In this document: positions 1-38,630 of the stretch, piece after piece
How positions within the stretch are numbered: the stretch's first letter is position 1
How the letters are laid out: each line of letters begins with the position of its first letter
Notes under the pieces: generated by a model
Told to the model about the DNA's origin: nothing
The model's database searches: none
The model's input: the letters and a program-made list of their open reading frames with translations, nothing else
Assembly (NCBI GenBank): GCA_027923505.1
Contig: BROI01000018.1
Location: 248,001-312,000 of the forward strand
Origin: Mayamaea pseudoterrestris
Lineage: Eukaryota
Direction: 5' to 3'
DNA: 64,000 nt
Program-made: the position numbers and the translations under genes

Positions 1-3000
1 CTACAAGGTGGTATGCCTGGATGGGGTCTCAGGGGATGGCAATGTGATTGGTGACAACTTGTCACCAGTCTCAGCCCGCAGATGCCTTGACATTCAAACG
101 CTCCTACAGCACGCCATGTATACACCCAAATTACACCAGAATGGTGCCAACATCATTATTTGGGCTGCGCTACAAGATGGTATGCCTGGCTGGGGTCTCA
201 GGGGATGGCAATGTGATTGGTGACAACTTGTCACCAGTCTCAGCCCGCAGATGCCTTGACATTCAAACGCTCCTACAGCACGCCATGTATACACCCAAAT
301 TACACCAGAATGGTGCCAACATCATTATTTGGGCTGCGCTACAAGATGGTATGCCTGGATGGGGTCTCAGGGGATGGCAATGTGATTGGTGACAACTTGT
401 CACCAGTCTCAGCCCGCAGATGCCTTGACATTCAAACGCCCCTACAGCACGCCATGTATACACCCAAATTACACCAGAATGGTGCCAACATCATTATTTG
501 GGCTGCGCTACAAGATGGTATGCCTGGCTGGGGTCTCAGGGGATGGCAATGTGATTGGTGACAACTTGTCACCAGTCTCAGCCCGCAGATGCCTTGACAT
601 TCAAACGCTCCTACAGCACGCCATGTATACACCCAAATTACACCAGAATGGTGCCAACATCATTATTTGGGCTGCGCTACAAGATGGTATGCCTGGCTGG
701 TGTCTCAGGGGATGGCAATGTGATTGGTGACAACTTGTCACCAGTCTCAGCCCGCAGATGCCTTGACATTCAAACGCTCCACCTACAGCACGCCATGTAT
801 ACACCCAAATTACACCAGAATGGTGCCAACATCATTATTTGGGCTGCGCTACAAGATGGTATGCCTGGCTGGGGTCTCAGGGGATGGCAATGTGATTGGT
901 GACAACTTGTCACCAGTCTCAGCCCGCAGATGCCTTGACATTCAAACGCCCCTACAGCACGCCATGTATACACCCAAATTACACCAGAATGGTGCCAACA
1001 TCATTCTTTGGGCTGCGCTACAAGATGGTATGCCTGGCTGGTGTCTCAGGGGATGGCAATGTGATTGGTGACAACTTGTCACCAGTCTCAGCCCGCAGAT
1101 GCCTTGACATTCAAACGCCCCTACAGCACGCCATGTATACACCCAAATTACACCAGAATGGTGCCAACATCATTCTTTGGGCTGCGCTACAAGATGGTAT
1201 GCCTGGCTGGGGTCTCAGGGGATGGCAATGTGATTGGTGACAACTTGTCACCAGTCTCAGCCCGCAGATGCCTTGACATTCAAACGCTCCTACAGCACGC
1301 CATGTATACACCCAAATTACACCAGAATGGTGCCAACATCATTATTTGGGCTGCGCTACAAGATGGTATGCCTGGCTGGGGTCTCAGGGGATGGCAATGT
1401 GATTGGTGACAACTTGTCACCAGTCTCAGCCCGCAGATGCCTTGACATTCAAACGCTCCTACAGCACGCCATGTATACACCCAAATTACACCAGAATGGT
1501 GCCAACATCATTATTTGGGCTGCGCTACAAGATGGTATGCCTGGCTGGGGTCTCAGGGGATGGCAATGTGATTGGTGACAACTTGTCACCAGTCTCAGCC
1601 CGCAGATGCCTTGACATTCAAACGCTCCTACAGCAAGCCATGTATACACCCAAATTACACCAGAATGGTGCCAACATCATTATTTGGGCTGCGCTACAAG
1701 ATGGTATGCCTGGCTGGGGTCTCAGGGGATGGCAATGTGATTGGTGACAACTTGTCACCAGTCTCAGCCCGCAGATGCCTTGACATTCAAACGCCCCTAC
1801 AGCACGCCATGTATACACCCAAATTACACCAGAATGGTGCCAACATCATTATTTGGGCTGCGCTACAAGATGGTATGCCTGGCTGGGGTCTCAGGGGATG
1901 GCAATGTGATTGGTGACAACTTGTCACCAGTCTCAGCCCGCAGATGCCTTGACATTCAAACGCTCCTACAGCACGCCATGTATACACCCAAATTACACCA
2001 GAATGGTGCCAACATCATTCTTTGGGCTGCGCTACAAGGTGGTATGCCTGGCTGGTGTCTCAGGGGATGGCAATGTGATTGGTGACAACTTGTCACCAGT
2101 CTCAGCCCGCAGATGCCTTGACATTCAAACGCTCCTACAGCACGCCATGTATACACCCAAATTACACCAGAATGGTGCCAACATCATTATTTGGGCTGCG
2201 CTACAAGATGGTATGCCTGGCTGGGGTCTCAGGGGATGGCAATGTGATTGGTGACAACTTGTCACCAGTCTCAGCCCGCAGATGCCTTGACATTCAAACG
2301 CCCTACAGCACGCCATGTATACACCCAAATTACACCAGAATGGTGCCAACATCATTATTTGGGCTGCGCTACAAGATGGTATGCCTGGCTGGGGTCTCAG
2401 GGGATGGCAATGTGATTGGTGACAACTTGTCACCAGTCTCAGCCCGCAGATGCCTTGACATTCAAACGCTCCTACAGCACGCCATGTATACACCCAAATT
2501 ACACCAGAATGGTGCCAACATCATTATTTGGGCTGCGCTACAAGATGGTATGCCTGGCTGGGGTCTCAGGGGATGGCAATGTGATTGGTGACAACTTGTC
2601 ACCAGTCTCAGCCCGCAGATGCCTTGACATTCAAACGCTCCTACAGCACGCCATGTATACACCCAAATTACACCAGAATGGTGCCAACATCATTATTTGG
2701 GCTGCGCTACAAGATGGTATGCCTGGCTGGGGTCTCAGGGGATGGCAATGTGATTGGTGACAACTTGTCACCAGTCTCAGCCCGCAGATGCCTTGACATT
2801 CAAACGCTCCTACAGCACGCCATGTATACACCCAAATTACACCAGAATGGTGCCAACATCATTATTTGGGCTGCGCTACAAGATGGTATGCCTGGCTGGG
2901 GTCTCAGGGGATGGCAATGTGATTGGTGACAACTTGTCACCAGTCTCAGCCCGCAGATGCCTTGACATTCAAACGCTCCTACAGCACGCCATGTATACAC

Positions 3001-6000
3001 CCAAATTACACCAGAATGGTGCCAACATCATTCTTTGGACTGCGCTACAAGATGGTATGCCTGGCTGGGGTCTCAGGGGATGGCAATGTGATTGGTGACA
3101 ACTTGTCACCAGTCTCAGCCCGCAGATGCCTTGACATTCAAACGCTCCTACAGCACGCCATGTATACACCCAAATTACACCAGAATGGTGCCAACATCAT
3201 TATTTGGGCTGCGCTACAAGATGGTATGCCTGGCTGGGGTCTCAGGGGATGGCAATGTGATTGGTGACAACTTGTCACCAGTCTCAGCCCGCAGATGCCT
3301 TGACATTCAAACGCTCCTACAGCACGCCATGTATACACCCAAATTACACCAGAATGGTGCCAACATCATTATTTGGGCTGCGCTACAAGATGGTATGCCT
3401 GGCTGGGGTCTCAGGGGATGGCAATGTGATTGGTGACAACTTGTCACCAGTCTCAGCCCGCAGATGCCTTGACATTCAAACGCTCCTACAGCAAGCCATG
3501 TATACACCCAAATTACACCAGAATGGTGCCAACATCATTATTTGGGCTGCGCTACAAGATGGTATGCCTGGCTGGGGTCTCAGGGGATGGCAATGTGATT
3601 GGTGACAACTTGTCACCAATCTCAGCCAGCTGATGCCTTGACATTCAAACGCTCCTACAGCACGCCATGTATACACCCAAATTACACCAGAATGGTGCCA
3701 ACATCATTATTTGGGCTGCGCTACAAGATGGTATGCCTGGCTGGGGTCTCAGGGGATGGCAATGTGATTGGTGACAACTTGTCACCAGTCTCAGCCCGCA
3801 GATGCCTTGACATTCAAACGCTCCTACAGCAAGCCATGTATACACCCAAATTACACCAGAATGGTGCCAACATCATTATTTGGGCTGCGCTACAAGATGG
3901 TATGCCTGGCTGGGGTCTCAGGGGATGGCAATGTGATTGGTGACAACTTGTCACCAGTCTCAGCCCGCAGATGCCTTGACATTCAAACGCTCCTACAGCA
4001 AGCCATGTATACACCCAAATTACACCAGAATGGTGCCAACATCATTATTTGGGCTGCGCTACAAGGTGGTATGCCTGGATGGTGTCTCAGGGGATGGCAA
4101 TGTGATTGGTGACAACTTGTCACCAGTCTCAGCCCGCAGATGCCTTGACATTCAAACGCCCCTACAGCAAGCCATGTATACACCCAAATTACACCAGAAT
4201 GGTGCCAACATCATTATTTGGGCTGCGCTACAAGATGGTATGCCTGGCTGGGGTCTCAGGGGATGGCAATGTGATTGGTGACAACTTGTCACCAGTCTCA
4301 GCCCGCAGATGCCTTGACATTCAAACGCTCCTACAGCACGCCATGTATACACCCAAATTACACCAGAATGGTGCAAACATCATTATTTGGGCTGCGCTAC
4401 AAGATGGTATGCCTGGCTGGTGTCTCAGGGGATGGCAATGTGATTGGTGACAACTTGTCACCAGTCTCAGCCCGCAGATGCCTTGACATTCAAACGCTCC
4501 TACAGCACGCCATGTATACACCCAAATTACACCAGAATGGTGCCAACATCATTATTTGGGCTGCGCTACAAGATGGTATGCCTGGCTGGTGTCTCAGGGG
4601 ATGGCAATGTGATTGGTGACAACTTGTCACCAGTCTCAGCCCGCAGATGCCTTGACATTCAAACGCTCCTACAGCAAGCCATGTATACACCCAAATTACA
4701 GCAGAATGGTGCCAACATCATTGTTTGGGCTGCGCTACAAGACGGTATGCCTGTATGGTATCTCAGGGGATGGCAATGTGATTGGTGACAACTTGTCACC
4801 AGTCTCAGCCCGCAGATGCCTTGACATTCAAATGCTCCTACAGCACGCCATGTATACACCCAAATTAAACCAAAATGGTGCCAACATCATTATTTAGGCT
4901 GTGCTACAAGATGATATGCCTGGCTGGTGTCTCAGGGGATGGCAATGTGATTGGTGACAACTTGTCACCAGTCTCAGCCCACAGATGCCTTGACATTCAA
5001 ACGCCCCTACAGCACGCCATGTATACACCCAAATTACACCAGAATGGTGCCAAAATCATTATTTGGGTTGCGCTACAAGATGGTATGCCTGGCTGGTGTC
5101 TCAGGGGATGGCAATGTGATTGGTGACAACTTGTCACCAATCTCAGCCAGCTGATGCCTTGACATTCAAACGCCCCTACAGCACGCCATGTATACACCCA
5201 AATTACACCAGAATGGTGCCAACATCATTCTTTGGGCTGCGCTACAAGATGATATGCCTGGCTGGGGTCTCAGGGGATGGCAATGTGATTGGTGACAACT
5301 TGTCACCAGTCTCAGCCCGCAGATGCCTTGACATTTAAACGCTCCTACAGCACGCCATGTATACACCCAAATTACACCAGAATGGTGCTAACATCATTTT
5401 TTGGGCTGCGCTACAAGACGGTATGCCTGGCTGGGGTCTCAGGAGATGGCAATGTGATTGGTGACAACTTGTCACCAGTCTCGGCCCGCAGATGCCTTGA
5501 CATTCAAACGCTCCTACAGCATGCCATGTATACACCCAAATTACACCAGAATGGTGCCAACATCATTATTGGAGCTGCGCTGCAAGATGGTATGCCTGGC
5601 TGGTGTCTCAGGGGATGGCAATGTGATTGGTGACAACTTGTCACCAGTCTCAGCCCGCAGATGCCTTGACATTCAAACGCTCCTACAGCATGCCATGTAT
5701 ACACCCAAATTACATTATAATGGTGCCAACATCATTATATGGGCTGCGCTACAAGATGGTATGCCTGGATGGTGTCTCAGGGGATGGCAATGTGATTGGT
5801 GACAACTTGTCACCAATCTCAGCCCGCAGATGCCTTGACATTCAAACGCTCCTACAGCAAGCCATGTATACACCCAAATTACAGCAGAATGGTGCCAACA
5901 TCATTGTTTGGGCTGCGCTACAAGACGGTATGCCTGTATGGTATCTCAGGGGATGGCAATGTGATTGGTGACAACTTGTCACCAGTCTCAGCCCTCAGAT

Positions 6001-9000
6001 GCCTTGACATTCAAACGCTCCTACAGCACACCATGTATACACCCAATTTACACCAGAATGGTGCCAACATCATTATTTAGGCTGTGCTACAAGATGATAT
6101 GCCTGGCTGGTGTCTCAGGGGATGGCAATGTGATTGGTGACAACTTGTCACCAGTCTCATCCCACAGATGCCTAACATCATTATTTGGGCTGCGCTACAA
6201 GATGGTATGCCTGGCTGGGGTCTCAGGGGATGGCAATGTGATTGGTGACAACTTGTCACCAGTCTCAGCCCGCAGATGCCTTGACATTCAAACGCTCCTA
6301 CAGCACGCCATGTATACACCCAAATTACACCAGAATGGTGCCAACATCATTATTTGGGCTGCGCTACAAGATGGTATGCCTGGCTGGGGTCTCAGGGGAT
6401 GGCAATGTGATTGGTGACAACTTGTCACCAGTCTCAGCCCGCAGATGCCTTGACATTCAAACGCTCCTACAGCAAGCCATGTATACACCCAAATTACACC
6501 AGAATGGTGCCAACATCATTATTTGGGCTGCGCTACAAGATGGTATGCCTGGCTGGGGTCTCAGGGGATGGCAATGTGATTGGTGACAACTTGTCACCAG
6601 TCTCAGCCCGCAGATGCCTTGACATTCAAACGCCCCTACAGCACGCCATGTATACACCCAAATTACACCAGAATGGTGCCAACATCATTATTTGGGCTGC
6701 GCTACAAGATGGTATGCCTGGCTGGGGTCTCAGGGGATGGCAATGTGATTGGTGACAACTTGTCACCAGTCTCAGCCCGCAGATGCCTTGACATTCAAAC
6801 GCTCCTACAGCACGCCATGTATACACCCAAATTACACCAGAATGGTGCCAACATCATTCTTTGGGCTGCGCTACAAGGTGGTATGCCTGGCTGGTGTCTC
6901 AGGGGATGGCAATGTGATTGGTGACAACTTGTCACCAGTCTCAGCCCGCAGATGCCTTGACATTCAAACGCTCCTACAGCACGCCATGTATACACCCAAA
7001 TTACACCAGAATGGTGCCAACATCATTATTTGGGCTGCGCTACAAGATGGTATGCCTGGCTGGGGTCTCAGGGGATGGCAATGTGATTGGTGACAACTTG
7101 TCACCAGTCTCAGCCCGCAGATGCCTTGACATTCAAACGCCCTACAGCACGCCATGTATACACCCAAATTACACCAGAATGGTGCCAACATCATTATTTG
7201 GGCTGCGCTACAAGATGGTATGCCTGGCTGGGGTCTCAGGGGATGGCAATGTGATTGGTGACAACTTGTCACCAGTCTCAGCCCGCAGATGCCTTGACAT
7301 TCAAACGCTCCTACAGCACGCCATGTATACACCCAAATTACACCAGAATGGTGCCAACATCATTATTTGGGCTGCGCTACAAGATGGTATGCCTGGCTGG
7401 GGTCTCAGGGGATGGCAATGTGATTGGTGACAACTTGTCACCAGTCTCAGCCCGCAGATGCCTTGACATTCAAACGCTCCTACAGCACGCCATGTATACA
7501 CCCAAATTACACCAGAATGGTGCCAACATCATTATTTGGGCTGCGCTACAAGATGGTATGCCTGGCTGGGGTCTCAGGGGATGGCAATGTGATTGGTGAC
7601 AACTTGTCACCAGTCTCAGCCCGCAGATGCCTTGACATTCAAACGCTCCTACAGCACGCCATGTATACACCCAAATTACACCAGAATGGTGCCAACATCA
7701 TTATTTGGGCTGCGCTACAAGATGGTATGCCTGGCTGGGGTCTCAGGGGATGGCAATGTGATTGGTGACAACTTGTCACCAGTCTCAGCCCGCAGATGCC
7801 TTGACATTCAAACGCTCCTACAGCACGCCATGTATACACCCAAATTACACCAGAATGGTGCCAACATCATTCTTTGGACTGCGCTACAAGATGGTATGCC
7901 TGGCTGGGGTCTCAGGGGATGGCAATGTGATTGGTGACAACTTGTCACCAGTCTCAGCCCGCAGATGCCTTGACATTCAAACGCTCCTACAGCACGCCAT
8001 GTATACACCCAAATTACACCAGAATGGTGCCAACATCATTATTTGGGCTGCGCTACAAGATGGTATGCCTGGCTGGGGTCTCAGGGGATGGCAATGTGAT
8101 TGGTGACAACTTGTCACCAGTCTCAGCCCGCAGATGCCTTGACATTCAAACGCTCCTACAGCACGCCATGTATACACCCAAATTACACCAGAATGGTGCC
8201 AACATCATTATTTGGGCTGCGCTACAAGATGGTATGCCTGGCTGGGGTCTCAGGGGATGGCAATGTGATTGGTGACAACTTGTCACCAGTCTCAGCCCGC
8301 AGATGCCTTGACATTCAAACGCTCCTACAGCAAGCCATGTATACACCCAAATTACACCAGAATGGTGCCAACATCATTATTTGGGCTGCGCTACAAGATG
8401 GTATGCCTGGCTGGGGTCTCAGGGGATGGCAATGTGATTGGTGACAACTTGTCACCAATCTCAGCCAGCTGATGCCTTGACATTCAAACGCTCCTACAGC
8501 ACGCCATGTATACACCCAAATTACACCAGAATGGTGCCAACATCATTATTTGGGCTGCGCTACAAGATGGTATGCCTGGCTGGGGTCTCAGGGGATGGCA
8601 ATGTGATTGGTGACAACTTGTCACCAGTCTCAGCCCGCAGATGCCTTGACATTCAAACGCTCCTACAGCAAGCCATGTATACACCCAAATTACACCAGAA
8701 TGGTGCCAACATCATTATTTGGGCTGCGCTACAAGATGGTATGCCTGGCTGGGGTCTCAGGGGATGGCAATGTGATTGGTGACAACTTGTCACCAGTCTC
8801 AGCCCGCAGATGCCTTGACATTCAAACGCTCCTACAGCAAGCCATGTATACACCCAAATTACACCAGAATGGTGCCAACATCATTATTTGGGCTGCGCTA
8901 CAAGGTGGTATGCCTGGATGGTGTCTCAGGGGATGGCAATGTGATTGGTGACAACTTGTCACCAGTCTCAGCCCGCAGATGCCTTGACATTCAAACGCCC

Positions 9001-11012
9001 CTACAGCAAGCCATGTATACACCCAAATTACACCAGAATGGTGCCAACATCATTATTTGGGCTGCGCTACAAGATGGTATGCCTGGCTGGGGTCTCAGGG
9101 GATGGCAATGTGATTGGTGACAACTTGTCACCAGTCTCAGCCCGCAGATGCCTTGACATTCAAACGCTCCTACAGCACGCCATGTATACACCCAAATTAC
9201 ACCAGAATGGTGCAAACATCATTATTTGGGCTGCGCTACAAGATGGTATGCCTGGCTGGTGTCTCAGGGGATGGCAATGTGATTGGTGACAACTTGTCAC
9301 CAGTCTCAGCCCGCAGATGCCTTGACATTCAAACGCTCCTACAGCACGCCATGTATACACCCAAATTACACCAGAATGGTGCCAACATCATTATTTGGGC
9401 TGCGCTACAAGATGGTATGCCTGGCTGGTGTCTCAGGGGATGGCAATGTGATTGGTGACAACTTGTCACCAGTCTCAGCCCGCAGATGCCTTGACATTCA
9501 AACGCTCCTACAGCAAGCCATGTATACACCCAAATTACAGCAGAATGGTGCCAACATCATTGTTTGGGCTGCGCTACAAGACGGTATGCCTGTATGGTAT
9601 CTCAGGGGATGGCAATGTGATTGGTGACAACTTGTCACCAGTCTCAGCCCGCAGATGCCTTGACATTCAAATGCTCCTACAGCACGCCATGTATACACCC
9701 AAATTAAACCAAAATGGTGCCAACATCATTATTTAGGCTGTGCTACAAGATGATATGCCTGGCTGGTGTCTCAGGGGATGGCAATGTGATTGGTGACAAC
9801 TTGTCACCAGTCTCAGCCCACAGATGCCTTGACATTCAAACGCCCCTACAGCACGCCATGTATACACCCAAATTACACCAGAATGGTGCCAAAATCATTA
9901 TTTGGGTTGCGCTACAAGATGGTATGCCTGGCTGGTGTCTCAGGGGATGGCAATGTGATTGGTGACAACTTGTCACCAATCTCAGCCAGCTGATGCCTTG
10001 ACATTCAAACGCCCCTACAGCACGCCATGTATACACCCAAATTACACCAGAATGGTGCCAACATCATTCTTTGGGCTGCGCTACAAGATGATATGCCTGG
10101 CTGGGGTCTCAGGGGATGGCAATGTGATTGGTGACAACTTGTCACCAGTCTCAGCCCGCAGATGCCTTGACATTTAAACGCTCCTACAGCACGCCATGTA
10201 TACACCCAAATTACACCAGAATGGTGCTAACATCATTTTTTGGGCTGCGCTACAAGACGGTATGCCTGGCTGGGGTCTCAGGAGATGGCAATGTGATTGG
10301 TGACAACTTGTCACCAGTCTCGGCCCGCAGATGCCTTGACATTCAAACGCTCCTACAGCATGCCATGTATACACCCAAATTACACCAGAATGGTGCCAAC
10401 ATCATTATTGGAGCTGCGCTGCAAGATGGTATGCCTGGCTGGTGTCTCAGGGGATGGCAATGTGATTGGTGACAACTTGTCACCAGTCTCAGCCCGCAGA
10501 TGCCTTGACATTCAAACGCTCCTACAGCATGCCATGTATACACCCAAATTACATTATAATGGTGCCAACATCATTATATGGGCTGCGCTACAAGATGGTA
10601 TGCCTGGATGGTGTCTCAGGGGATGGCAATGTGATTGGTGACAACTTGTCACCAATCTCAGCCCGCAGATGCCTTGACATTCAAACGCTCCTACAGCAAG
10701 CCATGTATACACCCAAATTACAGCAGAATGGTGCCAACATCATTGTTTGGGCTGCGCTACAAGACGGTATGCCTGTATGGTATCTCAGGGGATGGCAATG
10801 TGATTGGTGACAACTTGTCACCAGTCTCAGCCCTCAGATGCCTTGACATTCAAACGCTCCTACAGCACACCATGTATACACCCAATTTACACCAGAATGG
10901 TGCCAACATCATTATTTAGGCTGTGCTACAAGATGATATGCCTGGCTGGTGTCTCAGGGGATGGCAATGTGATTGGTGACAACTTGTCACCAGTCTCATC
11001 CCACAGATGCCT
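1..11012 (+). repeat. 169-bp tandem satellite array (family A), about 65 monomers, continues past the left window edge
   Basis: Near-identical monomer ...GCCTTGACATTCAAACGCTCCTACAGCACGCCATGTATACACCCAAATTACACCAGAATGG... recurs every 169 bp (ORF starts at 48, 217, 386, 555...). Each monomer carries the palindrome TGGTGACAA-C-TTGTCACCA (first at 49-67). Confidence 0.99.
1335..11012 (+). repeat. 4839-bp tandem segmental duplication within the satellite (1335-6173 and 6174-11012)
   Basis: The diagnostic variants I compared recur at +4839 (1-bp deletion ~2300/~7139; CCAGCTGA ~3626/~8465; variant block ~4680-6170/~9520-11010). An out-of-register junction CAGATGCCT|AACATCATT lies at 6173/6174. Confidence 0.93.
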
Positions 11013-11249
11013 ACAAACAAACAAACAAGCTGGCTAGACAACAGGGTTGGCAAGCAAGCAAGCAAGCAAGAGGAATGAGAGGCATCGGATGGGGATCGGC
11101 AACTCGGTCTGTGGTTGTCGGTCCTCCATTGATGTCGCATCTGACGTGTCCCGAACCATCGATGATGTGTATCACTCAGAGTGTACTCATAAGGTATCTT
11201 ATGAGTGTCCCCAAGGCAGTCTCCTCGAAGCATCCGCCCTGAGCCGGAC
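11013..11249. repeat. Terminal direct repeat, 3' copy of the element (237 bp)
   Basis: ACAAACAAACAAACAAGCTGGCTAGAC...CCCTGAGCCGGAC matches 14535-14767 except for one extra CAAG unit and one SNP (GGTATC vs GGTACC). Confidence 0.97.
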
Positions 11250-11730
11250 AATCAGCACAAGTGCAGATTGCCCTCCGTCGCTCGGCTGTTTCTTTCCGCG
11301 GTGCAAGGCTCTGTCCGGTCTAGCTGCCCAACAGGAGGCAGCGATGTCCATGTAGGTTGCGTATGCTATGTGACCCGGAAATCCGGGTCCCTGAGCAACC
11401 ACGTCATCGATGATGACTGGCAGCGAGTCCTGTCTTGACAGGAGTCGCCTCAACCCACACGACAACAGCTAGCTGGATGGACGTCCCGCCACACAACAAC
11501 AAAGGCCGTGTGGCGAGAACCGCGAAAAGAAACAAGGAAGAAAGAACAGGAAACGAGAAGAAGGATGTGTCCCGCAGAACAAAGCATCCTGACTCCCTCT
11601 GAGCAAAGGGAGGGAGCTAGAGCCGAGGAGCGCATAAGCAACCTGGACCGTTAGGACCAGGCGACTCGGATGCAAAGCAATAGCTACCAACTCGAATCGA
11701 GTAGATGAATAATGTGTAATAAATGAAAGG

Positions 11731-11945
11731 TTATAATAAAACTGCTCCTTCAATGGCTTTCATGGTGAGGCGGCCAACCTCATGAGTGCTCTCGCGCAAG
11801 TAGTGCTGCACTGAGGGAGGCGACCAACGCAAGCGAAACGCGATTTCCTCGATTGTGAGGCCCGCGTTTTGGAGTGCGACCGCTGCTGTAACTCTATTAG
11901 AATGTGCCACAATGCGGTCCACGTTCTGGCGCAAGTAGTGGCCGC
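11731..11945 (-). pseudogene. C-terminal fragment of a tyrosine recombinase (DIRS-type YR)
   Basis: The end of ORF 11731..12102 reads HYLRQNVDRIVAHSNRVTAAVALQNAGLTIEEIAFRLRWSPPSVQHYLRE. This has H-x-x-R, the RW motif and the catalytic Tyr at the usual box II spacing. The N-terminal part with the first catalytic Arg is missing. Confidence 0.85.
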
Positions 11946-14471
11946 AGTGGCCGCGCCGGTGGCTGGTGTTGCTGCTGGTGATGGAGCACTGGCGGTGGCC
12001 TAATTGGCATGACGTCGGCAGGGAGTGGGCGACTGTAAAAGGTTGCTGGAGAGTCTGCTGTCGAGGTGAAGACGTTGACATTGAAGGCTGCCTCACACTC
12101 ACTGCGCCAGACCGTTAATTCTTCTTTTAATGTTTTCCAATCTCGCATCCGTATGGCACTGTCAAAGGCACAGACATCGGATCGTTCAGGGTAAGACCAC
12201 AGGAGTAGAGGGACACAATGTTCATCAGGGAAATAATTTTGCGCCCAGTCGGTGAAAACTTTGAATAAATGTTGCAGGCCGATGAAAGCAGCCGCGGTTA
12301 CGCGCAGACGTAGAGCAGGTCTCAAGCGCATCCACGCCTGTTGTGTAGGGTGATGAGATAGATGTTCAATGAACCAGAACAAATGTCCAGCCAATGGGGA
12401 AGCGAGTAGGAATGGCGACAACTCGGCGCTGATATCGCGGAGATTCTTGTACCGGGAAGGAAAGTGAAAAACCAAGTGTAGCCACCAACCAATATTGCGG
12501 ACACTTTCACGTGCTTCTTCTGTCGTTGGTCCCATGCGAATAGTTGGTGGAACTGCGTATGCTCCAAAGTGGGCTAGCAATCCCATTGTGGCGTTCAAAG
12601 TCCCTACCACGTACTTGGTGCGGTTGAACATGAATGGATCGTCGATGTCATCCACTGTAGGAAGAAGGCAGTGACCAACTGGTTCGCGTGATGTCTGGGC
12701 ATGGCCTGGGAAGTAAGGTGTGATACCTGTGCGGATCTGTTCGAAAGGCAGATGCAATCCGGATGTGCTGAGTGTTTCCGTGTTGACTCTGTTGCGCTGG
12801 CGCTGTTGGACTCGCGGCGGAGTTGCTGGATGCGTTGGCGGTTTTCTGACGCCAGTGACTTCAACTGAGTCATCGCTGTCTTCCCAATGGCCATGCTTTC
12901 GATAATCCAACTGAGTGGCGATGCTCGGTCCGCCACTTTGCTTGCGTTTGCGGTCGCGTCGTTGCCAGTCCAACTCCTCATCAGGCGTGCTGTGCTTTGC
13001 TGTCGTTTCAGTCTGTTGCGACGCGTGCTGTTTAACTTGCGGCGGGCTGGTGGCCTCCGACTGGAAGCGATCTCTAATCATGGCGGACAGTAGAGCTGTT
13101 GGCGGAGGACGGCGCGCAGCATGCGTGTTATGCGCTGGCGTGAGCTCTTTGGCTTGCGTATGCTTGGAGAGGATTTTGAGTTGCGCGAGGCCTTCTACTG
13201 ACAGTGTTGCGGCAATGTCGACTCTGACGAATTCGTTCAGCCAGGCTGGCAAATCTGTTTTCTGGAAAGCTATCTCGAAGTTTTTGATCCAACTTTGCGT
13301 CTTAATGTTGAGCAATCCTGGCAAGTACCACATGTCGTCCATGCGAGTGGAATGGAACGGCGCGATGTCTGGCGACTGGTCGAAAATCGTCATGGCGTGC
13401 GATCCTAACTGCTGGAGCTTGTCTGGCCAATGACCATCCAACGTGTGGAGCAAGTGGTCCCATAGTAGTCTACTGCGTAAGACCAGCTCGGGATGGCGAA
13501 ACGTGTCGAAAGCTGCCTGTGACTCGAGTCCTTTCCAAGCAGTCCAAGTGTCGGCCACCTGTGACATGAAGAGCGTATCGACTTTGACCAAATCTGGGCT
13601 CACATAGCAGCCATTGAGCCACATGTCCAGGAGCGGGTTGTCGTCCATCCACTGGTAGACGGCTTCTGGCAATCCAGTGAACTCAACGCAATAGTTCTTG
13701 AAGGCGGCGCCGCTGCGGCAATGTTCTGGCTGGAAAGCGACGGCTAGTGGAATGCCATGATTCTTGGGCAAGAAGAAGCAGCGTCCCATTGGGGCCAGGC
13801 CGGTTGTATCGGGCGTCACAAATACACCAGAATGGTGCTAGCATCATTCTTTGGGCTGCCTTTACAAGACAGTATGCCTGGCTGGGGTCCAGGAGATGGC
13901 ATGTGATTGGTGACAACTTGTCACCAGTCACCACATTCGGAATGCCTTGACATTCAGCGCTTTTACGGAAGCCATTATACACCCAAATTACGCAGAATGG
14001 TCCAACATTATTATTTGGGCTGCGCTACAGATGGTATGCCTGGTTGGTGTCTCAGGGGATGGCAATGTGATTGGTGACAACTTGTCACCAGTCTCGGCCC
14101 GCAGATGCCTTGACATTCAAACGCTCTTACAGCACGCCATGTATACACCCAATTTACACCAGAATGGTGCCAACATCATTATTTGGGCTGCGCTGCAAGA
14201 TGGTATGCCTGGCTGGTGTCTCAGGGGATGGCAATGTGATTGGTGACAACTTGTCACCAATCTCAGCCAGCTGATGCCTTGACATTCAAACGCCATGCAC
14301 GCCTTCCGTCCAACCGTCAATCTGGAACTCCATCGCTGCAGCTCTCTCTTCTTTCTTTGGTGCTGCGTCGCCCAACCAGGTCGTAGAGGCCTTGGTTTGG
14401 ATCGGCAGACGGAAAGATGGCGAGGCCCCAGCAAACTCTTGGAGAGCCCCTGGAAAGCGGACAAGCGTCAT
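11897..14471 (-). CDS. ORF1 (gag-position protein) of the YR element, ~697 aa, interrupted by a satellite segment at 13820-14300
   Basis: A 640-codon open frame spans 13819-11897. A further 57 codons run from ATG 14471 (MTLVRFPG...DGWTEG) and join it in frame when 13820-14300 is removed. The C-terminus runs out of frame into YR sequence, consistent with a deletion junction near 11945. The gag identity rests on position only. Confidence 0.65.
13820..14297 (+). repeat. ~2.8 monomers of the 169-bp satellite inside the element; first monomer is indel-rich
   Basis: AAATACACCAGAATGGTGCTAGCATC...GACATTCAAACGCCATG, with palindromes at ~13908, 14072 and 14241. Confidence 0.95.
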
Positions 14472-14534
14472 GATCGAAGGAAATGAGGGAGTGAGAGCGA
14501 GGAAAGAAACGCGGTTCGAGCAACAAAGGCAAGA

Positions 14535-14767
14535 ACAAACAAACAAACAAGCTGGCTAGACAACAGGGTTGGCAAGCAAGCAAGCAAGAGGAATGAGAGG
14601 CATCGGATGGGGATCGGCAACTCGGTCTGTGGTTGTCGGTCCTCCATTGATGTCGCATCTGACGTGTCCCGAACCATCGATGATGTGTATCACTCAGAGT
14701 GTACTCATAAGGTACCTTATGAGTGTCCCCAAGGCAGTCTCCTCGAAGCATCCGCCCTGAGCCGGAC
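14535..14767. repeat. Terminal direct repeat, 5' copy of the element (233 bp)
   Basis: Matches 11013-11249. Contains the perfect 22-bp palindrome ACTCATAAGGTACCTTATGAGT at 14703-14724. Confidence 0.97.
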
Positions 14768-17700
14768 CATGTATACACCCAAATTACACCATAATGGTGC
14801 CAACATCATTATTTGGCCTGCGCTACAAGATGGTATGCCTGGATGGTGTCTCAGGGGATGGCAATGTGATTGGTGACAACTTGTCACCAATCTCAGCCCG
14901 CAGATGCCTTGACATTCAAACGCTCCTACAGCAAGCCATGTATACACCCAAATTACACCAGAATGGTGCCAACATCATTGTTTGGACTGCGCTACAAGAC
15001 GGTATGCCTGTATGGTATCTCAGGGGATGGCAATGTGATTGGTGACAACTTGTCACCAGTCTCAGCCCGCAGATGCCTTGACATTCAAACGCTCCTACAG
15101 CACGCCATGTATACACCCAAATTACACCAGAATGGTGCCAAAATCATTATTTAGGCTGTGCTACAAGATGATATGCCTGGCTGGTGTCTCAGGGGATGGC
15201 AATGTGATTGGTGACAACTTGTCACCAGTCTCAGCCCGCAGATGCCTTGACATTCAAACGCCCCTACAGCACGCCATGTATACACCCAAATTACACCAGA
15301 ATGGTGCCAACATCATTATTTGGGCTGCGCTACAAGATGGTATGCCTGGCTGGTGTCTCAGGGGATGGCAATGTGATTGGTGACAACTTGTCACCAGTCT
15401 CAGCCCGCAGATGCCTTGACATTCAAACGCCCCTACGGCACGCCATGTATACACCCAAATTACACCAGAATGGTGCCAACATTATTATTTGGACTGCGCT
15501 ACAAGATGGTATGCCTGGCTGGGGTCTCAGGGGATGGCAATGTGATTGGTGACAACTTGTCACCAATCTCAGCCAGCTGATGCCTTGACATTCAAATGCC
15601 CCTACAGCACGCCATGTATACACCCAAATTACACCAGAATGGTGCCAACATCATTCTTCCGGCTGCAAAACAAGATGGTATGCCTGGATGGGGTCTCAGG
15701 GGATGGCAATGTGATTGGTGACAACTTGTCACCAGTCTCAGCCCGCAGATGCCTTGACATTCAAACGCCCCTACAGCACGCCATGTATACACCCAAATTA
15801 CACCAGAATGGTGCCAACATCATTATTTGGGCTGCGCTACAAGATGGTATGCCTGGCTGGGGTCTCAGGGGATGGCAATGTGATTGGTGACAACTTGTCA
15901 CCAGTCTCAGCCCTCAGATGCCTTGACATTCAAACGCCCCTACAGCACGCCATGTATACACCCAAATTACACCAGAATGGTGCCAACATCATTATTTGGG
16001 CTGCGCTACAAGATGGTATGCCTGGCTGGTGTCTCAGGGGATGGCAATGTGATTGGTGACAACTTGTCACCAGTCTCAGCCCTCAGATGCCTTGACATTC
16101 AAACGCCCCTACAGCACGCCATGTATACACCCAAATTACACCAGAATGGTGCCAACATCATTCTTTGGGCTGCGCTACAAGATGGTATGCCTGGCTGGTG
16201 TCTCAGGGGATGGCAATGTGATTGGTGACAACTTGTCACCAGTCTCAGCCCGCAGATGCCTTGACATTCAAACGCCCCTACGGCACGCCATGTATACACC
16301 CAAATTACACCAGAATGGTGCCAACATTATTATTTGGGCTGCGCTACAAGATGGTATGCCTGGCTGGTGTCTCAGGGGATGGCAATGTGATTGGTGACAA
16401 CTTGTCACCAGTCTCAGCCAGCTGATGCCTTGACATTCAAACGCCCCTACAGCACGCCATGTATACACCCAAATTACACCAGAATGGTGCCAACATCATT
16501 ATTTGGGCTGCGCTACAAGATGGTATGCCTGGCTGGTGTCTCAGGGGATGGCAATGTGATTGGTGACAACTTGTCACCAATCTCAGCCAGCTGATGCCTT
16601 GACATTCAAACGCCCCTACAGCACGCCATGTATACACCCAAATTACACCAGAATGGTGCCAACATCATTCTTCCGGCTGCGCTACAAGATGGTATGCCTG
16701 GATGGGGTCTCAGGGGATGGCAATGTGATTGGTGACAACTTGTCACCAGTCTCAGCCCGCAGATGCCTTGACATTCAAACGCTCCTACAGCACGCCATGT
16801 ATACACCCAAATTACACCAGAATGGTGCCAACATCATTCTTTGAGCTGCGCTACAAGATGGAATGCTTGGCTGGTGTCTCAGGGGATGGCAATGTGATTG
16901 GTGACAACTTGTCACCAGTCTCAGCCCGCAGATGCCTTGACATTCAAACGCTCCTACAGCAAGCCATGTATACACCCAAATTACACCAGAATGGTGCCAA
17001 CATTATTATTTGGACTGCGCTACAAGATGGTATGCCTGGCTGGGGTCTCAGGGGATGGCAATGTGATTGGTGACAACTTGTCACCAATCTCAGCCAGCTG
17101 ATGCCTTGACATTCAAACGCCCCTACAGCACGCCATGTATACACCCAAATTACACCAGAATGGTGCCAACATCATTTTTTGATCTGCGCTACAAGATGGT
17201 ATGCCTGGCTGGTGTCTCAGGGGATGGCAATGTGATTGGTGACAACTTGTCACCAGTCTCAGCCAGCTGATGCCCTGACATTCAATCACCCCTACAGCAA
17301 GACATGTATACACCCAAATTACACCAGAATGGTGCCAACACCATTATTTGGGCTGCGCTACAAGATGGTATGCCTGGATGGTGGTCCCAGGTGATGGCAA
17401 TGTGATTGGTGACAACTTGTCACCAATCTCAGCCAGCTGATGCCTTGACATTCAAATGCCCCTATAGCACGCCATGTATATACCCAAATTACACCCAAAT
17501 GATGCCAACATCATTATTTGGGCTGCGCTACAAGATGGTATGCCTGGATGGTGTCTCAGGGGATGGCAATGTGATTGGTGACAACTTGTCACCAAGCTCA
17601 GCCAGCTGATGCCTTGACATTCAAATGCTCCTACAGCAAACCATGTATACACCCAAATTACACCAGAATGGTGCCAACATCATTCTTTGGGCTGCGCTAC

Positions 17701-19454
17701 AAGGTGGTATGCCTGTATGGTGTCTCAGGGGATGGCAATGTGATTGGTGACAACTTGTCACCAAGCTCAGCCAGCTGATGCCTTGACATTCAAACGCTCC
17801 TACAGCAAGCCATGTATACACCCAAATTACACCAGAATGGTGCCAACATCATTCTTCCGGCTGCGCTACAAGGTGGTATGCCTGGCTGGTGTCTCAGGGG
17901 ATGGCAATGTGATTGGTGACAACTTGTCACCAATCTCAGCCAGCTGATGCCTTGACATTCAAACACCTCTACAGCACGCCATGTATACACCCAAATTACA
18001 CCAGAATGGTGCCAACATTATTATTTGGACTGCGCTACAAGATGGTATGCCTGGATGGTGTCTCAGGGGATGGCAATGTGATTGGTGACAACTTGTCACC
18101 AGTCTCAGCCCGCAGATGCCATGACATTCAAATGCTCCTACAGCAAACCATGTATACACCCAAATTACACCAGAATGGTGCCAACATCATTCTTTGGGCT
18201 GCGCTACAAGGTGGTATGCCTGGATGGTGTCTCAGGGGATGGCAATGTGATTGGTGACAACTTGTCACCAGTCTCAGCCCGCAGATGCCTTGACATTCAA
18301 ACGCTCCTACAGCAAGCCATGTATACACCCAAATTACACCAGAATGGTGCCAACATCATTCTTCCGGCTGCGCTACAAGGTGGTATGCCTGGCTGGTGTC
18401 TCAGGGGATGGCAATGTGATTGGTGACAACTTGTCACCAATCTCAGCCAGCTGATGCCTTGACATTAAATCACCATTCAAACGCCCCTACAGCACGCCAT
18501 GTATACACCCAAATTACACCAGAATGGTGCTAACATCATTATTTGGGCTGCGCTACAAGACGGTATGCCTGGCTGGGGTCTCAGGGGATGGCAATGTGAT
18601 TGGTGACAACTTGTCACCAGTCTCAGCCCGCAGATGCCTTGACATTCAAACGCTTTTACAGCACGCCATGTATACACCCAAATTACACCAGAATGGTGCC
18701 AACATCATTATTTGGGCTGCGCTACAAGATGGTATGCCTGGCTGGGGTCTCAGGGGATGGCAATGTGATTGGTGACAACTTGTCACCAATCTCAGCCAGC
18801 TGATGCCTTGACATTCAAACACCCCTACAGCACGCCATGTATACACCCAAATTACACCAGAATGGTGCCAACATCATTATTTTGGCTGCGCTACAAGTGG
18901 TATGCTTGGATGGTGTCTCAGGGGATGGCAATGTAATTGGTGACAACTTGTCACCAGTCTCAGCCAACAGATGCCTTGACAATCAAACGCTCCTACAGCA
19001 AGCCATGTATACACCAAAATTACACCAGAATGGTGCCAACATCATTCTTTGGGCTGCGCTACAAGGTGGTATGCCTGTATGGTGTCTCAGGGGATGGCAA
19101 TGTGATTGGTGACAACTTGTCACCAGTCTCAGCCCGCAGATGCCTTGACATTCAAATGCTCCTACATCAAGCCATTTATACACCCAAATTACACCAGAAT
19201 GGTTCCAACATCATTAATTGGGCTGCGTTACAAGATGGTATGCCTGGCTGGGGTCCCAGGGGATGGCAATGTGATTGGTGACAACTTGTCACCAAACTCA
19301 GCCAGCTGATGCCTTGACATTCAAACGCCCCTACAGCACGCCATGTATACACCCAAATTACACCAGAATGGTGCCAACATTATTATTTGGGCTGCGCTAC
19401 AAGGTGGTATGCCTGGATGGTGTCTCAGGGGATGGCAATGTGATTTGTGACAAC
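14768..19454 (+). repeat. 169-bp satellite array (family A) continued, about 28 monomers, increasingly diverged rightwards
   Basis: Same monomer and period. Substitutions and small indels accumulate after ~17200. The array ends at the palindrome centre (GTGACAAC). Confidence 0.98.
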
Positions 19455-20280
19455 ACTGTAGCACCGTGGAGCTGGTAACTGTGTGGAGGTTTGCCCTCCC
19501 AAACAACTAATGCTACATGTGAGCTGGGAATGATTGTTATGCACCAATCACACCGCATATGTGTTCCCAACCATAGCCAGAACAGAATTCATGGAACAAG
19601 ACTATTGGGGGTATTCTTTATAGGCCACACACTGTAGCACCGTGGAGCTGGTCACTGTGTGGAGGTTTGCCTTCCCAAACAACTAATGCTACATGTGAGC
19701 TGGGAATGAGTTTTATGCACCAATCTCACTGAATATGTATTCCCAAGCATAGCCAGAACAGAATTCATGGAACAAGACTATGGGGGTAGTCTTCATAGGC
19801 CACACACTGTAATACCATGGAGCTGGTCCATGTGTGGACGTCTGCCCTCCCAAACAACTACTGCTACATGTGAGCTGGGAATGATTTTTATGCCCCAATC
19901 TCACCACATACATGTCTTCAAGCGTAGCCAGAACAGAATTCATGGAACAAGACTATGGGGGTAGTCTTTGAAGGCAACACACTGTAGCACCGTGCAGCTG
20001 GTTACTGTGTGGAGGTTTGCCCTTCCAAACAACTGATCCTACACCTGAGCTGCAATTGATTGGTATGCACCAATCATACAGTATATGTGTCCCTAAGCAT
20101 AGCCAAAACAAAATTCATGGAACAAGACTATTGGGGGTAGTCTTTGAAGGCCACACACATTGGCACCGTGGAGCTGGTTACTGTGTGGAGGTTTGCCCTC
20201 CCATATATTCCAGGTTACAACTGAGCTAGAAATGATAAAGTGGACCAACCTGGCCACGTACTAGTCCCAAAGCATAAACA
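19453..20280. repeat. ~175-176-bp diverged tandem repeat (family B), about 4.7 monomers
   Basis: ACACTGTAGCACCGTGGAGCTGG...AGAATTCATGGAACAAGACTAT recurs at 19453, 19629, 19804, 19979 and ~20155. Confidence 0.93.
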
Positions 20281-20436
20281 TACTATGATAGAGTAGGACC
20301 AAAAATAACGGCGTGGGATGTGATATAGATACCGGTAAGACAAGATGAGATCTTCGAATTACGCTGCGACGAGCACCTTTTCGTCGCCTCGATCGATCCA
20401 CAGTTATTTGAACAAACCTTTGTACTTGGTACTACT

Positions 20437-21675
20437 ATGAACCCGTCACAGCTCCAGAAACATACGCCAGCAGGTCTCCTTGTCAAGCATCTTGATTGGT
20501 CTGACAAGCAGCGCCGTATTCTCACGGCAAATTGCCAAGCCGAGTCGTACTTTCACCCCGATCGGGGTTTCGAATTCGATGAATCCGATCTGCCTCATTT
20601 CCTTCTCACAAATGAAGCTATTGATAATCGGCAAGTCTTTACAGATTGGAAGACGAAAGGTTGTAAATCAAGTCTTATTGCCGGAGCTTGGACGCGCGTC
20701 CTTTTTCACGGTGGATGGGAATTTACGTCGCATGCCGACGAACACACGTACAATCTGCAAACCGAAACGCTCTTTATTGATTTACGCATTCCGAAGACAA
20801 GAAGGGACATCTTTTCGTTACTAGCAGATGGTGACAAGAGCAGGCCAATTTGTTCCGTGCATGATCTTGATGCGCAAGCCTTGCGCTACTACGCTCGCCA
20901 GCACGTCTTTGCCGGATTCTCCAAGCTAACACGGCACGACAGCAAGGCACACTACCCTTGGAGCTGCACCCGCCATCACGTCATGGACTGGAACTATGTG
21001 GGAATGCCTAGAACGCGTCCAAACAAGTGGTGGATTGAAATGAAACCACATGCCGATGGAGAAGCTGCAGCAGATGCTTGGAAGGAATGGGCATTCGCGA
21101 CAGACTCTGCAGGGCAGCACTACTACTGCGAGCAGTGGGAGCGACGAAAGAGCTTGAATTTGCGTAATAACAATGAAGGCGATGAGGATAAAGGTGAAGT
21201 TGATAGACCAATGATGCTGGCGCTCCGCATGAAGCAAAATCCTCAGAACAAGGATGGTATTTTAATTGTCGTTGGAAACGAATTCAACTATTGTCTATCA
21301 CAGCGACCCATTAACTCTAATCAAGATGCAGCTCACGCAAGTTTGGTGGCACTGGTGGATGATGCAGTGACTCGGGGTGACTTGGACGCCGCTAGGCAAT
21401 GGCTTGGAAGTATGCAGGGCGGACATGGCCACGTTCACACGTCGCAGGACAATCCGACGCACAATTCCTGGACGATTGACGCAGCCATTGAGTTTTGGAA
21501 GGAAGGAACGAGCTTGCTTACACCAGGTGACGTTACTGTCAGTGGTAGCTCAGTGGACGATTGTACTATAATTTGGAATGGTGAGGAATGGAGCGTCTTT
21601 GAAAGCTCAATTGACAATCTCGAATCATTGGTGCAGCTCTTTGGTTGTTTGCAGATGCGGCGCAGAGTGAGATGA
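20437..21675 (+). CDS. Hypothetical protein, possibly HRI1-like beta-rich family
   Basis: 412-aa ATG-initiated ORF. The motifs LQTETLFIDLRIP, FAGFS, CTRHHVMDW and YCEQWER resemble HRI1-type proteins as I recall them (tentative). Confidence 0.75.
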   Translation: MNPSQLQKHTPAGLLVKHLDWSDKQRRILTANCQAESYFHPDRGFEFDESDLPHFLLTNEAIDNRQVFTDWKTKGCKSSLIAGAWTRVLFHGGWEFTSHADEHTYNLQTETLFIDLRIPKTRRDIFSLLADGDKSRPICSVHDLDAQALRYYARQHVFAGFSKLTRHDSKAHYPWSCTRHHVMDWNYVGMPRTRPNKWWIEMKPHADGEAAADAWKEWAFATDSAGQHYYCEQWERRKSLNLRNNNEGDEDKGEVDRPMMLALRMKQNPQNKDGILIVVGNEFNYCLSQRPINSNQDAAHASLVALVDDAVTRGDLDAARQWLGSMQGGHGHVHTSQDNPTHNSWTIDAAIEFWKEGTSLLTPGDVTVSGSSVDDCTIIWNGEEWSVFESSIDNLESLVQLFGCLQMRRRVR

Positions 21676-21769
21676 GATAAGGATAGCAGGCTCGCACTAG
21701 CTAATGTGGTTAATTGCGATATTATATTCTCGTGGTAACAAAGTTAGCGGTATTCTATATTGAACTGGC

Positions 21770-22627
21770 CTATTCCTCCTCTTGTTGCCTCCGAGATGCT
21801 GGGTTTGTTGGCGCGGCGTCTTGCGTTTCTTGCTGCATATGTTGTTGTTGTTGTTGCTGCTGCTGCATGTAATAGTATGGATTATAATAGCCATATCCGC
21901 CTTGCTGCGGCTGCGCGGGAGTCGGTTGCTGCGGATAGTAGGCGGCTTGCGCCGCCATTAACCCTGGCTGCATGGCGTATCCGTTCCAAGCTGCTGCAGT
22001 TTGATGATGCGTCGCTGCAGCAGCTGCTGCCGGAATACTGTTTGCCGCATAGTCTCTATGACTGCTTGACTGCGCCGTCGTGGAAGCTGCTGCTGTTGCT
22101 GCAGACGTCGAAGCCGCAGATGCCGCCCCTCCTCGTGGAGATGCCGCTCGCTCCTCTGCTGGAACTAGCGTTGGAAGCATGACGAGGACTTCCTCGTCAT
22201 CGCCGCCACTTCCACCTCGACGAGAGCTTCCGCCGCCTCCTCCTCCTCGCTTCGCTTCAGCGAGCTGTCGCTTGAGCTGCTGGTTCTCACGATGCAAGCT
22301 TCGAATGCATTGAATCGTTCCTCCAATCAAATCAAACCTCGTCAACGATGAATCTTGCTCCGGCTTGATTTTTTTGCTGGGTCGCTCCGACGCATCATCT
22401 CCATCCGCCGCAGAAGCTCCTTGCGGCGGCGGCGGGTTGCCTTCGACGAGAGCGAGTAGATTCGAAAGCTCATCAAAGGCGCTGGCAAGGTCGGACCGCC
22501 GCTGCTTTTCGCGCTCGCGCTTCCGAAGCGACTTGTTGGCTGTGGATTGGGATGACATGTCAATGAGTGGATCGGAAAGCGTATCGTCGGCCTCTTGCTG
22601 TTGTTGCTGGTAATGGACCTCCGGCAT
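21770..22627 (-). CDS. bHLH transcription factor with Gln/Ala/Tyr-rich C-terminus
   Basis: Basic region and helix 1 KREREKQRRSDLASAFDELSNLL; helix 2 and zipper TRFDLIGGTIQCIRSLHRENQQLK. First ATG at 22627. Confidence 0.88.
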   Translation of the reverse strand: MPEVHYQQQQQEADDTLSDPLIDMSSQSTANKSLRKREREKQRRSDLASAFDELSNLLALVEGNPPPPQGASAADGDDASERPSKKIKPEQDSSLTRFDLIGGTIQCIRSLHRENQQLKRQLAEAKRGGGGGGSSRRGGSGGDDEEVLVMLPTLVPAEERAASPRGGAASAASTSAATAAASTTAQSSSHRDYAANSIPAAAAAATHHQTAAAWNGYAMQPGLMAAQAAYYPQQPTPAQPQQGGYGYYNPYYYMQQQQQQQQHMQQETQDAAPTNPASRRQQEEE

Positions 22628-22991
22628 TGTGATAAGAGTGATGGGCCACGCGCAGTGATAAACCAAGTGGAAAGGGACTTTAAAGGCGCTTGCATTCAAG
22701 TGCACGCGCAATCATGGAGACGAAGGCAATGAGCAGCGCGGCGGACGATTCCGGCGCGCCGCGCCGACCGAGTTTTCAGTGCCGGTTCAGTCGTGCCTGT
22801 GACTTTGCGGCTCAGAACCTCCAGCGCGGCGTCGCAGCGCATCATCGAACACAAAAACGATTCATCGGCTTGCATCGCACCGACCAACGAAACAGATTCT
22901 GTTCCCGCATCTTACCGAATACTCGTTCGTCTACGGAAGTATCGTAAAAAGGAAGCAGCTGCGACCAGAGATTTATTGACGCTTAAAAATC

Positions 22992-25900: not shown

Positions 25901-26252
25901 TGCCATTCCTGTCGAAGTTGTTCACGGCCGCGGCAAGGTACAGGCTGTATTTGAGATCGGAGGCATTAGCGACAAAGTTGCTGGTCTTCGCGTAATAGAG
26001 GGAACGTTGTTTCGGGACAAGGCAACGCGCCCTGGCGGACCGAAGCTCAAGTCGGAATATCGCATCCTCCGAAATGGCAAAGTACTTTCTGACGCTACCT
26101 ACACAGTATCAAGCCTCAAGTACTTTAAGGAAGATGTCAATGAAGTGGCGCGAGGCAAGGAGTGCGGTTTATCGCTAGCTGGATACAGCCTTTTCGAGGA
26201 GGGTGACGAAATCGAGTGCTTTTCCATTGAGATGAAAAGGGAGTTTGTTTAG
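22992..26252 (+). CDS. MTIF2: Translation initiation factor IF-2, bacterial type (probably mitochondrial)
   Basis: [31 protein letters not shown] and C-terminal GKECG. Long low-complexity N-terminus with an Arg/Ser-rich presequence-like start. Confidence 0.95.
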
Positions 26253-26318
26253 GATATAATGTTAGCATAGTAAGATAGACATATTAGACTATAACTTTCT
26301 ATAATAGCGTACACAAGC

Positions 26319-27540: not shown

Positions 27541-27800
27541 ACTCTTTTGTGCAAGATTTGTGGTAATTATTTAGTTGTCACAAGGCAATCAGAATGATTT
27601 TGATGAGAGTGTCTGGTGTCTGCCATGGCCGAGTTGTGAGGTGAGTCGGCCGAGTTTCGATGCGACATCACCTACCGGGGTGGATGGACCGTTAGCTTTC
27701 CTTTCACTGTCAGTTCAGTTACATGCATACTGGTAGTCCACATCAAGAAATAACGAAAGAACAAATTTAACAGAAAACTAAGTCACCTCAAACATTATTT

Positions 27801-29503: not shown

Positions 29504-29702
29504 GTTCTATAGAAGAGGTGCTCTTATACAAGCCAATGATGGCGAGTAACAATGAAGGAGCGAGGGAGAAAGTGAACGAAGGCAAAGCAGATGTGCGATC
29601 CGGCGGTGGCGCAGATCGTCGTGTCGCATCGTTACACGTTAGTACCGATGCGATTTTTATTGCAATGCATGACGATGGCCGCATTTTCACAGCCTTGAGC
29701 TC

Positions 29703-31163: not shown

Positions 31164-31235
31164 TAGGAAATGATAAGCCACTAAGTAAGCATCGAATGGG
31201 GAATAATGTATTTAATAACCATGCGTCAACAGCTA

Positions 31236-38291: not shown

Positions 38292-38630
38292 GATGACTAA
38301 AGGGGTGTTATTTTGTTGCAAAAGTCTGCTAGTTTCTTCGTCTCGTGCGGTATGGTAGGTGGTGATAAGCAAGCGATCGTCCCATGGTGATATTGAGGAT
38401 TGAGGCGCGATCGATGAACCGATTAGTGTCACAGCGACACGACATTCAGTACCGTATCTAATAACTTGGCTGCCGCGCATTGTGATTGGAAGCTTATCAA
38501 CTAAACTGAACAACTAATGCGTTGAAAGAGTCAACCAAATGCCTTTCACTGACCCAAACAGGTCCAGTAAGTGCAAAGTCATTGACCTGTGAGGTCCAGT
38601 AAGTAGAAAGTTTGATGTATGGACAATTAA

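Follow-up and report, generated by a model that had tools for sequence, protein, structure and literature searches.

What kind of element lies at positions 11013-14767 of the window (the whole 64,000-nucleotide stretch of Mayamaea pseudoterrestris contig BROI01000018.1 analysed here), and is its place inside a satellite array a matter of targeting? A sequence-only reading had proposed a young tyrosine-recombinase derivative with simple terminal repeats that might seek out the satellite. Our analysis agrees that the element derives from a tyrosine-recombinase retrotransposon, is young and is not able to move alone. We consider it likely, however, that it is a recently inserted, now decayed Ngaro-like diatom retrotransposon (DIRS order, split direct repeat) that bears four lesions: a satellite patch in ORF1, a 122-codon gap, a deletion of about 4 kb and the loss of the terminal B2 repeat. 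The copy is an ordinary remnant, not demonstrated as a new mobile or satellite-seeking element. Its parts, in window coordinates, are as follows.

1-11012, plus strand: left array of the 169-bp satellite, ending at the element junction.
11013-11248, minus strand: A2 repeat, 236 bp, cut exactly where A ends; spacer and B2 are missing.
11249-11456, minus strand: B1 repeat, 208 bp, ending GATTG at the B1/A2 joint; contigs from runs X2 and X4 depart from the window at 11456.
11457-11730, minus strand: 3' non-coding stretch from recombinase to B1, assigned from sequence and covered by run contigs.
11731-11945, minus strand: last ~69 codons of a tyrosine recombinase with H-x-x-R, W and the catalytic Y kept, fused out of frame to ORF1.
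11944-13818, minus strand: 3' part of ORF1, a putative protein in the Gag position, without 122 conserved codons and the C-terminus.
13819-14294, plus strand: ~2.9 monomers of the 169-bp satellite (476 bp) replacing ~225 ORF1 codons; the first 211 bp hold 14 gap columns.
14295-14471, minus strand: 5' beginning of ORF1 proper, with its ATG at 14471 and 59 codons, matching the N-termini of proteins P0002 and P0083 and interrupted by satellite.
14535-14766, minus strand: A1, the 5' split direct repeat, 232 bp, starting TCCGG like the A of relatives, with a clean joint to the satellite.
14767-19454, plus strand: right array of the 169-bp satellite.

The terminal direct repeats (11013-11249 and 14535-14767) are separated by a single substitution and a single 4-bp unit, as had been noticed before, and are 99.6% alike; with 11249 (a G) counted as part of B1 and 14767 (also a G) as satellite, A itself measures 236 and 232 bp. 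The element ends read TCCGG...TTTGT, and its sequence points to an insertion without target duplication. Only A...A had been thought visible, but a single-copy B repeat is present at 11249-11456. Its identity comes from public sequencing runs, whose contigs (X1-X4) were compared with 11013-13819, runs X5-X7 (shares 0.06-0.15) being left out; what we say of the runs rests on the matches listed, which comprise 32 of 462 pieces and 24 of 74 loose ends, and RNA data were not found among the runs listed as matching. A contig of X2 and another of X4, two runs from separate studies, exit the window at 11456 and pass through (GGGT)3GGG into the start of A, which on the element strand gives the order A, C-rich spacer, B. 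Because these contigs join B to the spacer and A, we take 11249-11456 to be B1 and the family to end in A2-spacer-B2. All four repeats together were seen on no single contig of the runs or metagenome loci.

Relatives in metagenomes carry the same ends. Eighty loci were collected, and the 42 of at least 3.4 kb were inspected for end repeats: a B1/B2 pair stands behind the recombinase in 10 of them (108-209 bp, 349-450 bp apart), and 3 further loci show a tandem doubling of 408-430 bp. The B1/A2 joint reads ATTG/TCCGGC, as in the window, in seven of the eight joints that hold the A-start motif, and in locus L002, which has lost its RT and sits in unique DNA, A lies ahead of ORF1. A C-rich stretch precedes B2 in most cases (in seven of ten relatives, the 30 nt ahead of B2 contain 47-53% C). 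We rejected a G-quadruplex spacer as a trait of the clade, the strict motif occurring in none of the ten relatives' spacers. The sequence-only reading had counted ordinary A-B-A-B termini in other copies as evidence against itself, and such termini are what the relatives display; together with the runs, they speak against a family with simple terminal repeats. Pieced together from relatives and run contigs, the family layout is shown to be A1-ORF1-RT/RNase H-tyrosine recombinase-B1-A2-spacer-B2, with a parent of about 8.5 kb as the sum of the pieces.

The recombinase connects this copy to complete members of the family. Its tail reads H-S-N-R...R-W...Y, as first described, the conserved R and K positions further upstream being deleted, and although the Pfam Phage_integrase match is weak (E 0.052), 77 longer relatives were found, among them gene models of the same host (P0005, 94% identity; P0006, 86%; P0007, 71%), all three with RT and RNase H as well. 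The predicted fold of a full-length relative's recombinase resembles Cre (pLDDT 87.6, Foldseek E 1.6e-6), and that of a family ORF2 resembles retroelement RT, both caulimoviral and retroviral (pLDDT 87.3, E 1.3e-8). The P0005 order is ORF1, RT, RNase H, recombinase, and RT and RNase H, the latter recognised by alignment motifs, also lie between ORF1 and recombinase in L004, L012 and L064. Searches with seven family proteins (tblastn) upheld the earlier statement that the element has no RT or RNase H, and gave no match in the rest of the window either. The join at 11944/11945 deletes ~1,290 residues of the P0005 model, or ~4 kb, and so removes the end of ORF1 together with RT/RNase H and the greater part of the recombinase. 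The possibility that the deletions are spliced-out introns was considered and found unsupported, given that ORF1 and recombinase are joined out of frame and just 69 codons of the latter are left.

Domain libraries barely register these proteins. RVT_1 was found by Pfam in only 2 of 42 ORF2 proteins (best E 0.017), and a profile of the 42 gave nothing below E 0.12 against PDB sequences. In 38 of the 42, the protein continues for 41-196 residues (median 79) beyond the end motif of RNase H, which leaves no room for a methyltransferase there. The Dam family had no match at E<=0.5 in the 42 proteins, which carry ~250 residues without assignment ahead of the RT core. We use the putative label Ngaro-like on the basis of the repeat layout, the order of RT/RNase H and recombinase, and the lack of a methyltransferase.

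ORF1, which the sequence-only reading took to have been kept, is broken in three places: ~225 codons are replaced, 122 are missing and the C-terminus is gone. Nor is the element a unique island, the replacement at 13819-14294 being monomers of the very satellite that surrounds it. The 646-codon stop-free frame on the minus strand (11897-13837, stop at 11897-11899) begins inside this satellite, and the genuine start at 14471 lies in a different frame that meets a stop in the satellite after 61 codons. Past 13818, X3 and X4 contigs carry non-satellite letters, and those of X4 translate, by eye, like the ORF1 of P0002. The 122 codons absent at 12502/12503 are present in all but one of the relatives that span the region; contigs in X1 and X2, from two studies, bridge the same gap (37 letters on the short side; 1.6-1.9% from the window), and we infer that it was inherited, in that it predates this copy or is common to other copies. 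The deleted C-terminus includes a Cys/His motif that ends many ORF1 relatives. What is left of ORF1 and the recombinase tail is collinear with relatives and free of frameshifts. Throughout the clade ORF1 has 1000-1250 aa, and no Pfam family rose above cut-off for it or its relatives (zf-CCCH_2 reached E 0.049 in P0102); an ESM Atlas search with P0002 gave no usable match. Four ORF1-matching proteins bear the source label Mayamaea pseudoterrestris. One of them, P0001, is collinear with the long frame, including satellite-derived residues at its start, and is probably the gene model of this locus; since it starts with such residues, the element has been turned into a false gene by gene callers.

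The 169-bp satellite flanks the element on both sides, as had been stated, and covers the first 19.5 kb of the window. It stands where B2 should be, which also agrees with the first description. The right array picks up 27 bp further along the monomer than the point at which the left array stops. Positions 6174-11012 are a 100% identical duplicate of 1335-6173 (4,839 bp, 0 mismatches) that ends at the element junction. Within the patch, 14 gap columns fall into 211 bp (13820-14030), against 0-1 in five other main-array stretches; diverged monomers at 38631-39731 have 36. The inverted repeats found (n=18) were just satellite palindromes and short pairs. Derivation of the satellite from the element's repeats was rejected, as there was no match between satellite and A or B in the window, nor any satellite match in the 80 loci. 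Outside satellite and element, the window is dense in genes with few introns.

How might such a copy have come about? We envision a scenario whereby RNA of the parent, in which the 122-codon gap may already have been present, would have been reverse transcribed and its ends rebuilt on the B1-A2 joint, and whereby the recombinase would have inserted the DNA at 14766/14767, within a monomer of the satellite and next to an A1 end that is still intact. At least about 250 bp would have been lost later, namely the spacer, B2 and, on the satellite side, 27 bp plus any whole monomers. Among the matches listed, in which neither the ORF1/recombinase junction nor the satellite junctions were seen, this loss, the ~4-kb deletion and the satellite patch look private to the copy. 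Three private lesions are many for A repeats that are 99.6% alike.

By analogy, the loss of B2 might tentatively be ascribed to a deletion at a stalled G-quadruplex, an account that we rate as possible rather than probable. The B2 break at the exact end of A coincides with the 3' side of (GGGT)3GGG on the plus strand, a motif known from related copies, and in C. elegans, the 3' junction of G-quadruplex deletions lies at most 3 bp from the motif, the deletions extending over about 50-300 bp, according to the accessible part of PMC4654259. The analogy concerns a single event here and is drawn from another kingdom. The left junction is also the end of the perfect 4,839-bp duplication, for which the G-quadruplex idea does not account. 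Details of the end-regeneration model for split-repeat elements have it that B2 is needed. A copy without B2 cannot rebuild its ends, so that this one is most likely dead, immobile even in trans. Reverse transcription of split-repeat elements is described as dependent on annealing between repeats (PMC6681497, in part). Degenerate Ngaro copies with lost 3' repeats have been described (PMC9210276, likewise in part).

Alternatively, the anatomy may partly be an artefact of assembly: the locus would hold an intact or at least longer element, or two haplotypes, and the satellite patch, the left junction or the duplication of 4.8 kb would have been stitched together by the assembler. We regard this as unlikely, albeit worth weighing: the gap columns of the patch resemble an unpolished long-read consensus, the mismatch-free duplication stops exactly at the element junction, and no piece identical to the window occurs among the 24 matches listed from X1-X3. 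The same-host gene models, moreover, look frameshifted. The remaining ORF1 pieces and the recombinase tail, however, are collinear and frameshift-free, real diverged monomers carry indels too (the 36 gap columns at 38631-39731), and contigs from two studies span the 122-codon gap.

Could the elements of this family have a preference, in this host, for the 169-bp satellite, through target sequence or chromatin tethering, as TATE has for telomeric repeats? We find the proposed targeting unsupported and think it rather improbable. The window's 5' junction does lie in satellite, and one X4 contig (depth 2.1, from a sister family) joins its B end to 21 bases that match the satellite; a 15-mer spanning that joint occurs nowhere in the window, which sets the joint apart from the ordinary monomer variants found here. 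Ngaro types with a target preference exist, according to the accessible part of PMC8547959. The two satellite junctions differ, however, in monomer position (by 27 bp) and in orientation, and satellite occupies 20 kb of this window alone. None of 11 relatives' 3' flanks (up to 1 kb; L002 and L004 excluded as repeats of L001 and L003) carries a tandem array, all flanks being unrelated to one another, with the proviso that short-read contigs are biased against satellite flanks. Were targeting true, it would offer a handle on diatom heterochromatin and would be, to our knowledge, the first satellite-targeting case for the group outside telomeric TATE. Similarly improbable is a scenario in which, in this diatom, subfamilies of an undescribed, Pfam-invisible Ngaro-like clade are directed to the 169-bp satellite and B2 is broken off time and again at a G-quadruplex spacer between A2 and B2, so that LTR-like A...A remnants stay behind in the arrays.

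It is also conceivable, but very unlikely, that the element belongs, as the sequence-only reading had it, to a non-autonomous family in its own right, one whose ends are simply A...A and which is copied in trans in its deleted form. Such a family would fit the near-identity of the A repeats, the 122-codon gap common to X1 and X2 contigs, the exact stop of A2 at the end of A (chance about 1-2% by our estimate), the RT-deleted relative L002 in unique DNA and the several- to fifty-fold excess of A/B depth over coding depth in the runs. Against it stand the presence of B2 in the family and its requirement in the published end-regeneration model (cited in the accessible part of PMC6681497); the run contigs nearest the ORF1/recombinase junction, which among the matches listed do not take it and instead continue beyond 11945 (404 nt) and 11944 (68 nt) with other letters; and a left flank from which 27 bp of satellite are missing, as would not be the case after a clean insertion. 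The high A/B depth, in turn, is explained by sister families and by solo AB repeats, as the available text of PMC8547959 describes them.

An LTR element, a TRIM or a Crypton DNA transposon, suggested by two long direct repeats at the ends and by the report of Cryptons from a diatom, is refuted with near certainty by recombinase relatives that sit behind RT/RNase H and by B1-A2-B2 ends, as well as by termini that read TCCGG...TTTGT rather than TG...CA, the lack of a target duplication and the terminal repeats of only 4-6 bp in Cryptons (PMC3212892, in its accessible part).

In itself, a single decayed copy is of little weight, but it exemplifies how a split-repeat element can come to resemble an LTR element, and it leads to a clade of split-repeat tyrosine-recombinase retrotransposons that is large and widespread (102 metagenome stretches; 104 RT relatives) and nearly missed by domain libraries. 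No named Ngaro, PAT, DIRS or VIPER sequence was among the matches of the protein and profile searches. For diatoms, we found no description of such elements in the open literature, and Repbase, subscription papers or supplements may hold them; DIRS/Ngaro-like elements are noted in the brown alga Ectocarpus (accessible part of PMC3145265).

How, then, does the element compare with known systems, taken from the accessible portions of the sources cited? DIRS1-like elements share RT/RNase H and a tyrosine recombinase, and differ in their inverted termini and internal complementary region, of which none was found in this element. TATE of Leishmania (VIPER-like; PMC6681497) is likewise a tyrosine-recombinase retrotransposon in a tandem repeat; its copies, clustered in tandem, all sit at the same point of the telomeric hexamer, whereas here the junctions vary and relatives sit in unique DNA. 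PAT-like elements (PAT, TOC, Kangaroo; PMC4157794) share split direct repeats and the recombinase, and some have a Gag zinc finger. They carry a methyltransferase after RNase H, a domain that marks PAT and DIRS1 elements (PMC4157794, PMC3783388), whereas here none was matched and a median of 79 residues occupies that place. The closest layout is that of Ngaro, in the stramenopile Cafeteria burkhardae (Ngaro1-4; PMC8547959) and in Xenopus (DIRS-53_XT; PMC9210276), where the same A1-[ORF1, RT/RH, YR]-B1-A2-B2 is found. Compared with these, our copy is without B2 and RT/RH and retains no more than the tail of YR and an incomplete ORF1, and its clade has an RT and YR barely detected by Pfam and an ORF1 of 1000-1250 aa. 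In both, the repeats lie downstream of the recombinase and there is no room for a methyltransferase, and for Ngaro, too, deletion variants, solo AB repeats and copies without 3' repeats have been described.

Near-complete relatives are found at four metagenome loci, L064 (590-8232), L069, L073 and L060. These elements measure ~8.1 kb; in each of them ORF1 and ORF2 share one frame with a single stop between them, and the end of ORF2 and the recombinase frame overlap. Other relatives (L002, L001, L015 and L076) end in a single B repeat. The one at L002 (833-5863) is a further deletion derivative: it possesses A1, a damaged ORF1 and a whole recombinase, has lost most of the RT, and is flanked by unique sequence. 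In a contig of the public sequencing run X2, position 11389 is joined to 13188, so that B leads directly into ORF1 and 1,798 bases are skipped; this contig may represent a sister-family derivative of reduced length.

Repeat A contains a 22-bp palindrome (window 11185-11206 and 14703-14724). Contig depth in the runs is highest around it, which suggests that this palindrome is common to many families or to solo repeats. A separate 31-bp palindrome occurs in every 169-bp satellite monomer (for example, window 14235-14265). In some relatives (L011, L012 and L041), the B end carries a palindrome loosely resembling it; a BLAST comparison of the two gave no significant match.

To the left of the element, the satellite includes two neighbouring 4,839-bp stretches (window 1335-6173 and 6174-11012) that are 100% identical and share the monomer position at which they stop; the end of the second stretch is the element's left junction. 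The pair might reflect a recent duplication, two haplotypes or an assembly error.

Further repeats were observed. An array of ~54 162-bp units with long stop-free frames (39854-48680), unrelated to the 169-bp satellite, is flanked on both sides by more diverged, minus-strand 169-bp monomers (38631-49646 overall). A 175-bp repeat occupies 19453-20203, and at L009 a 180-bp tandem array (6606-7993) lies 3.5 kb downstream of the relative's B2 end. Compact host genes occur in window 20329-38513 and 50005-62390; judged by eye, they resemble genes for translation factor IF2, methionine aminopeptidase, pyruvate dehydrogenase E2, a large HEAT-repeat protein, an MsrA fusion, p23 and a protein kinase.
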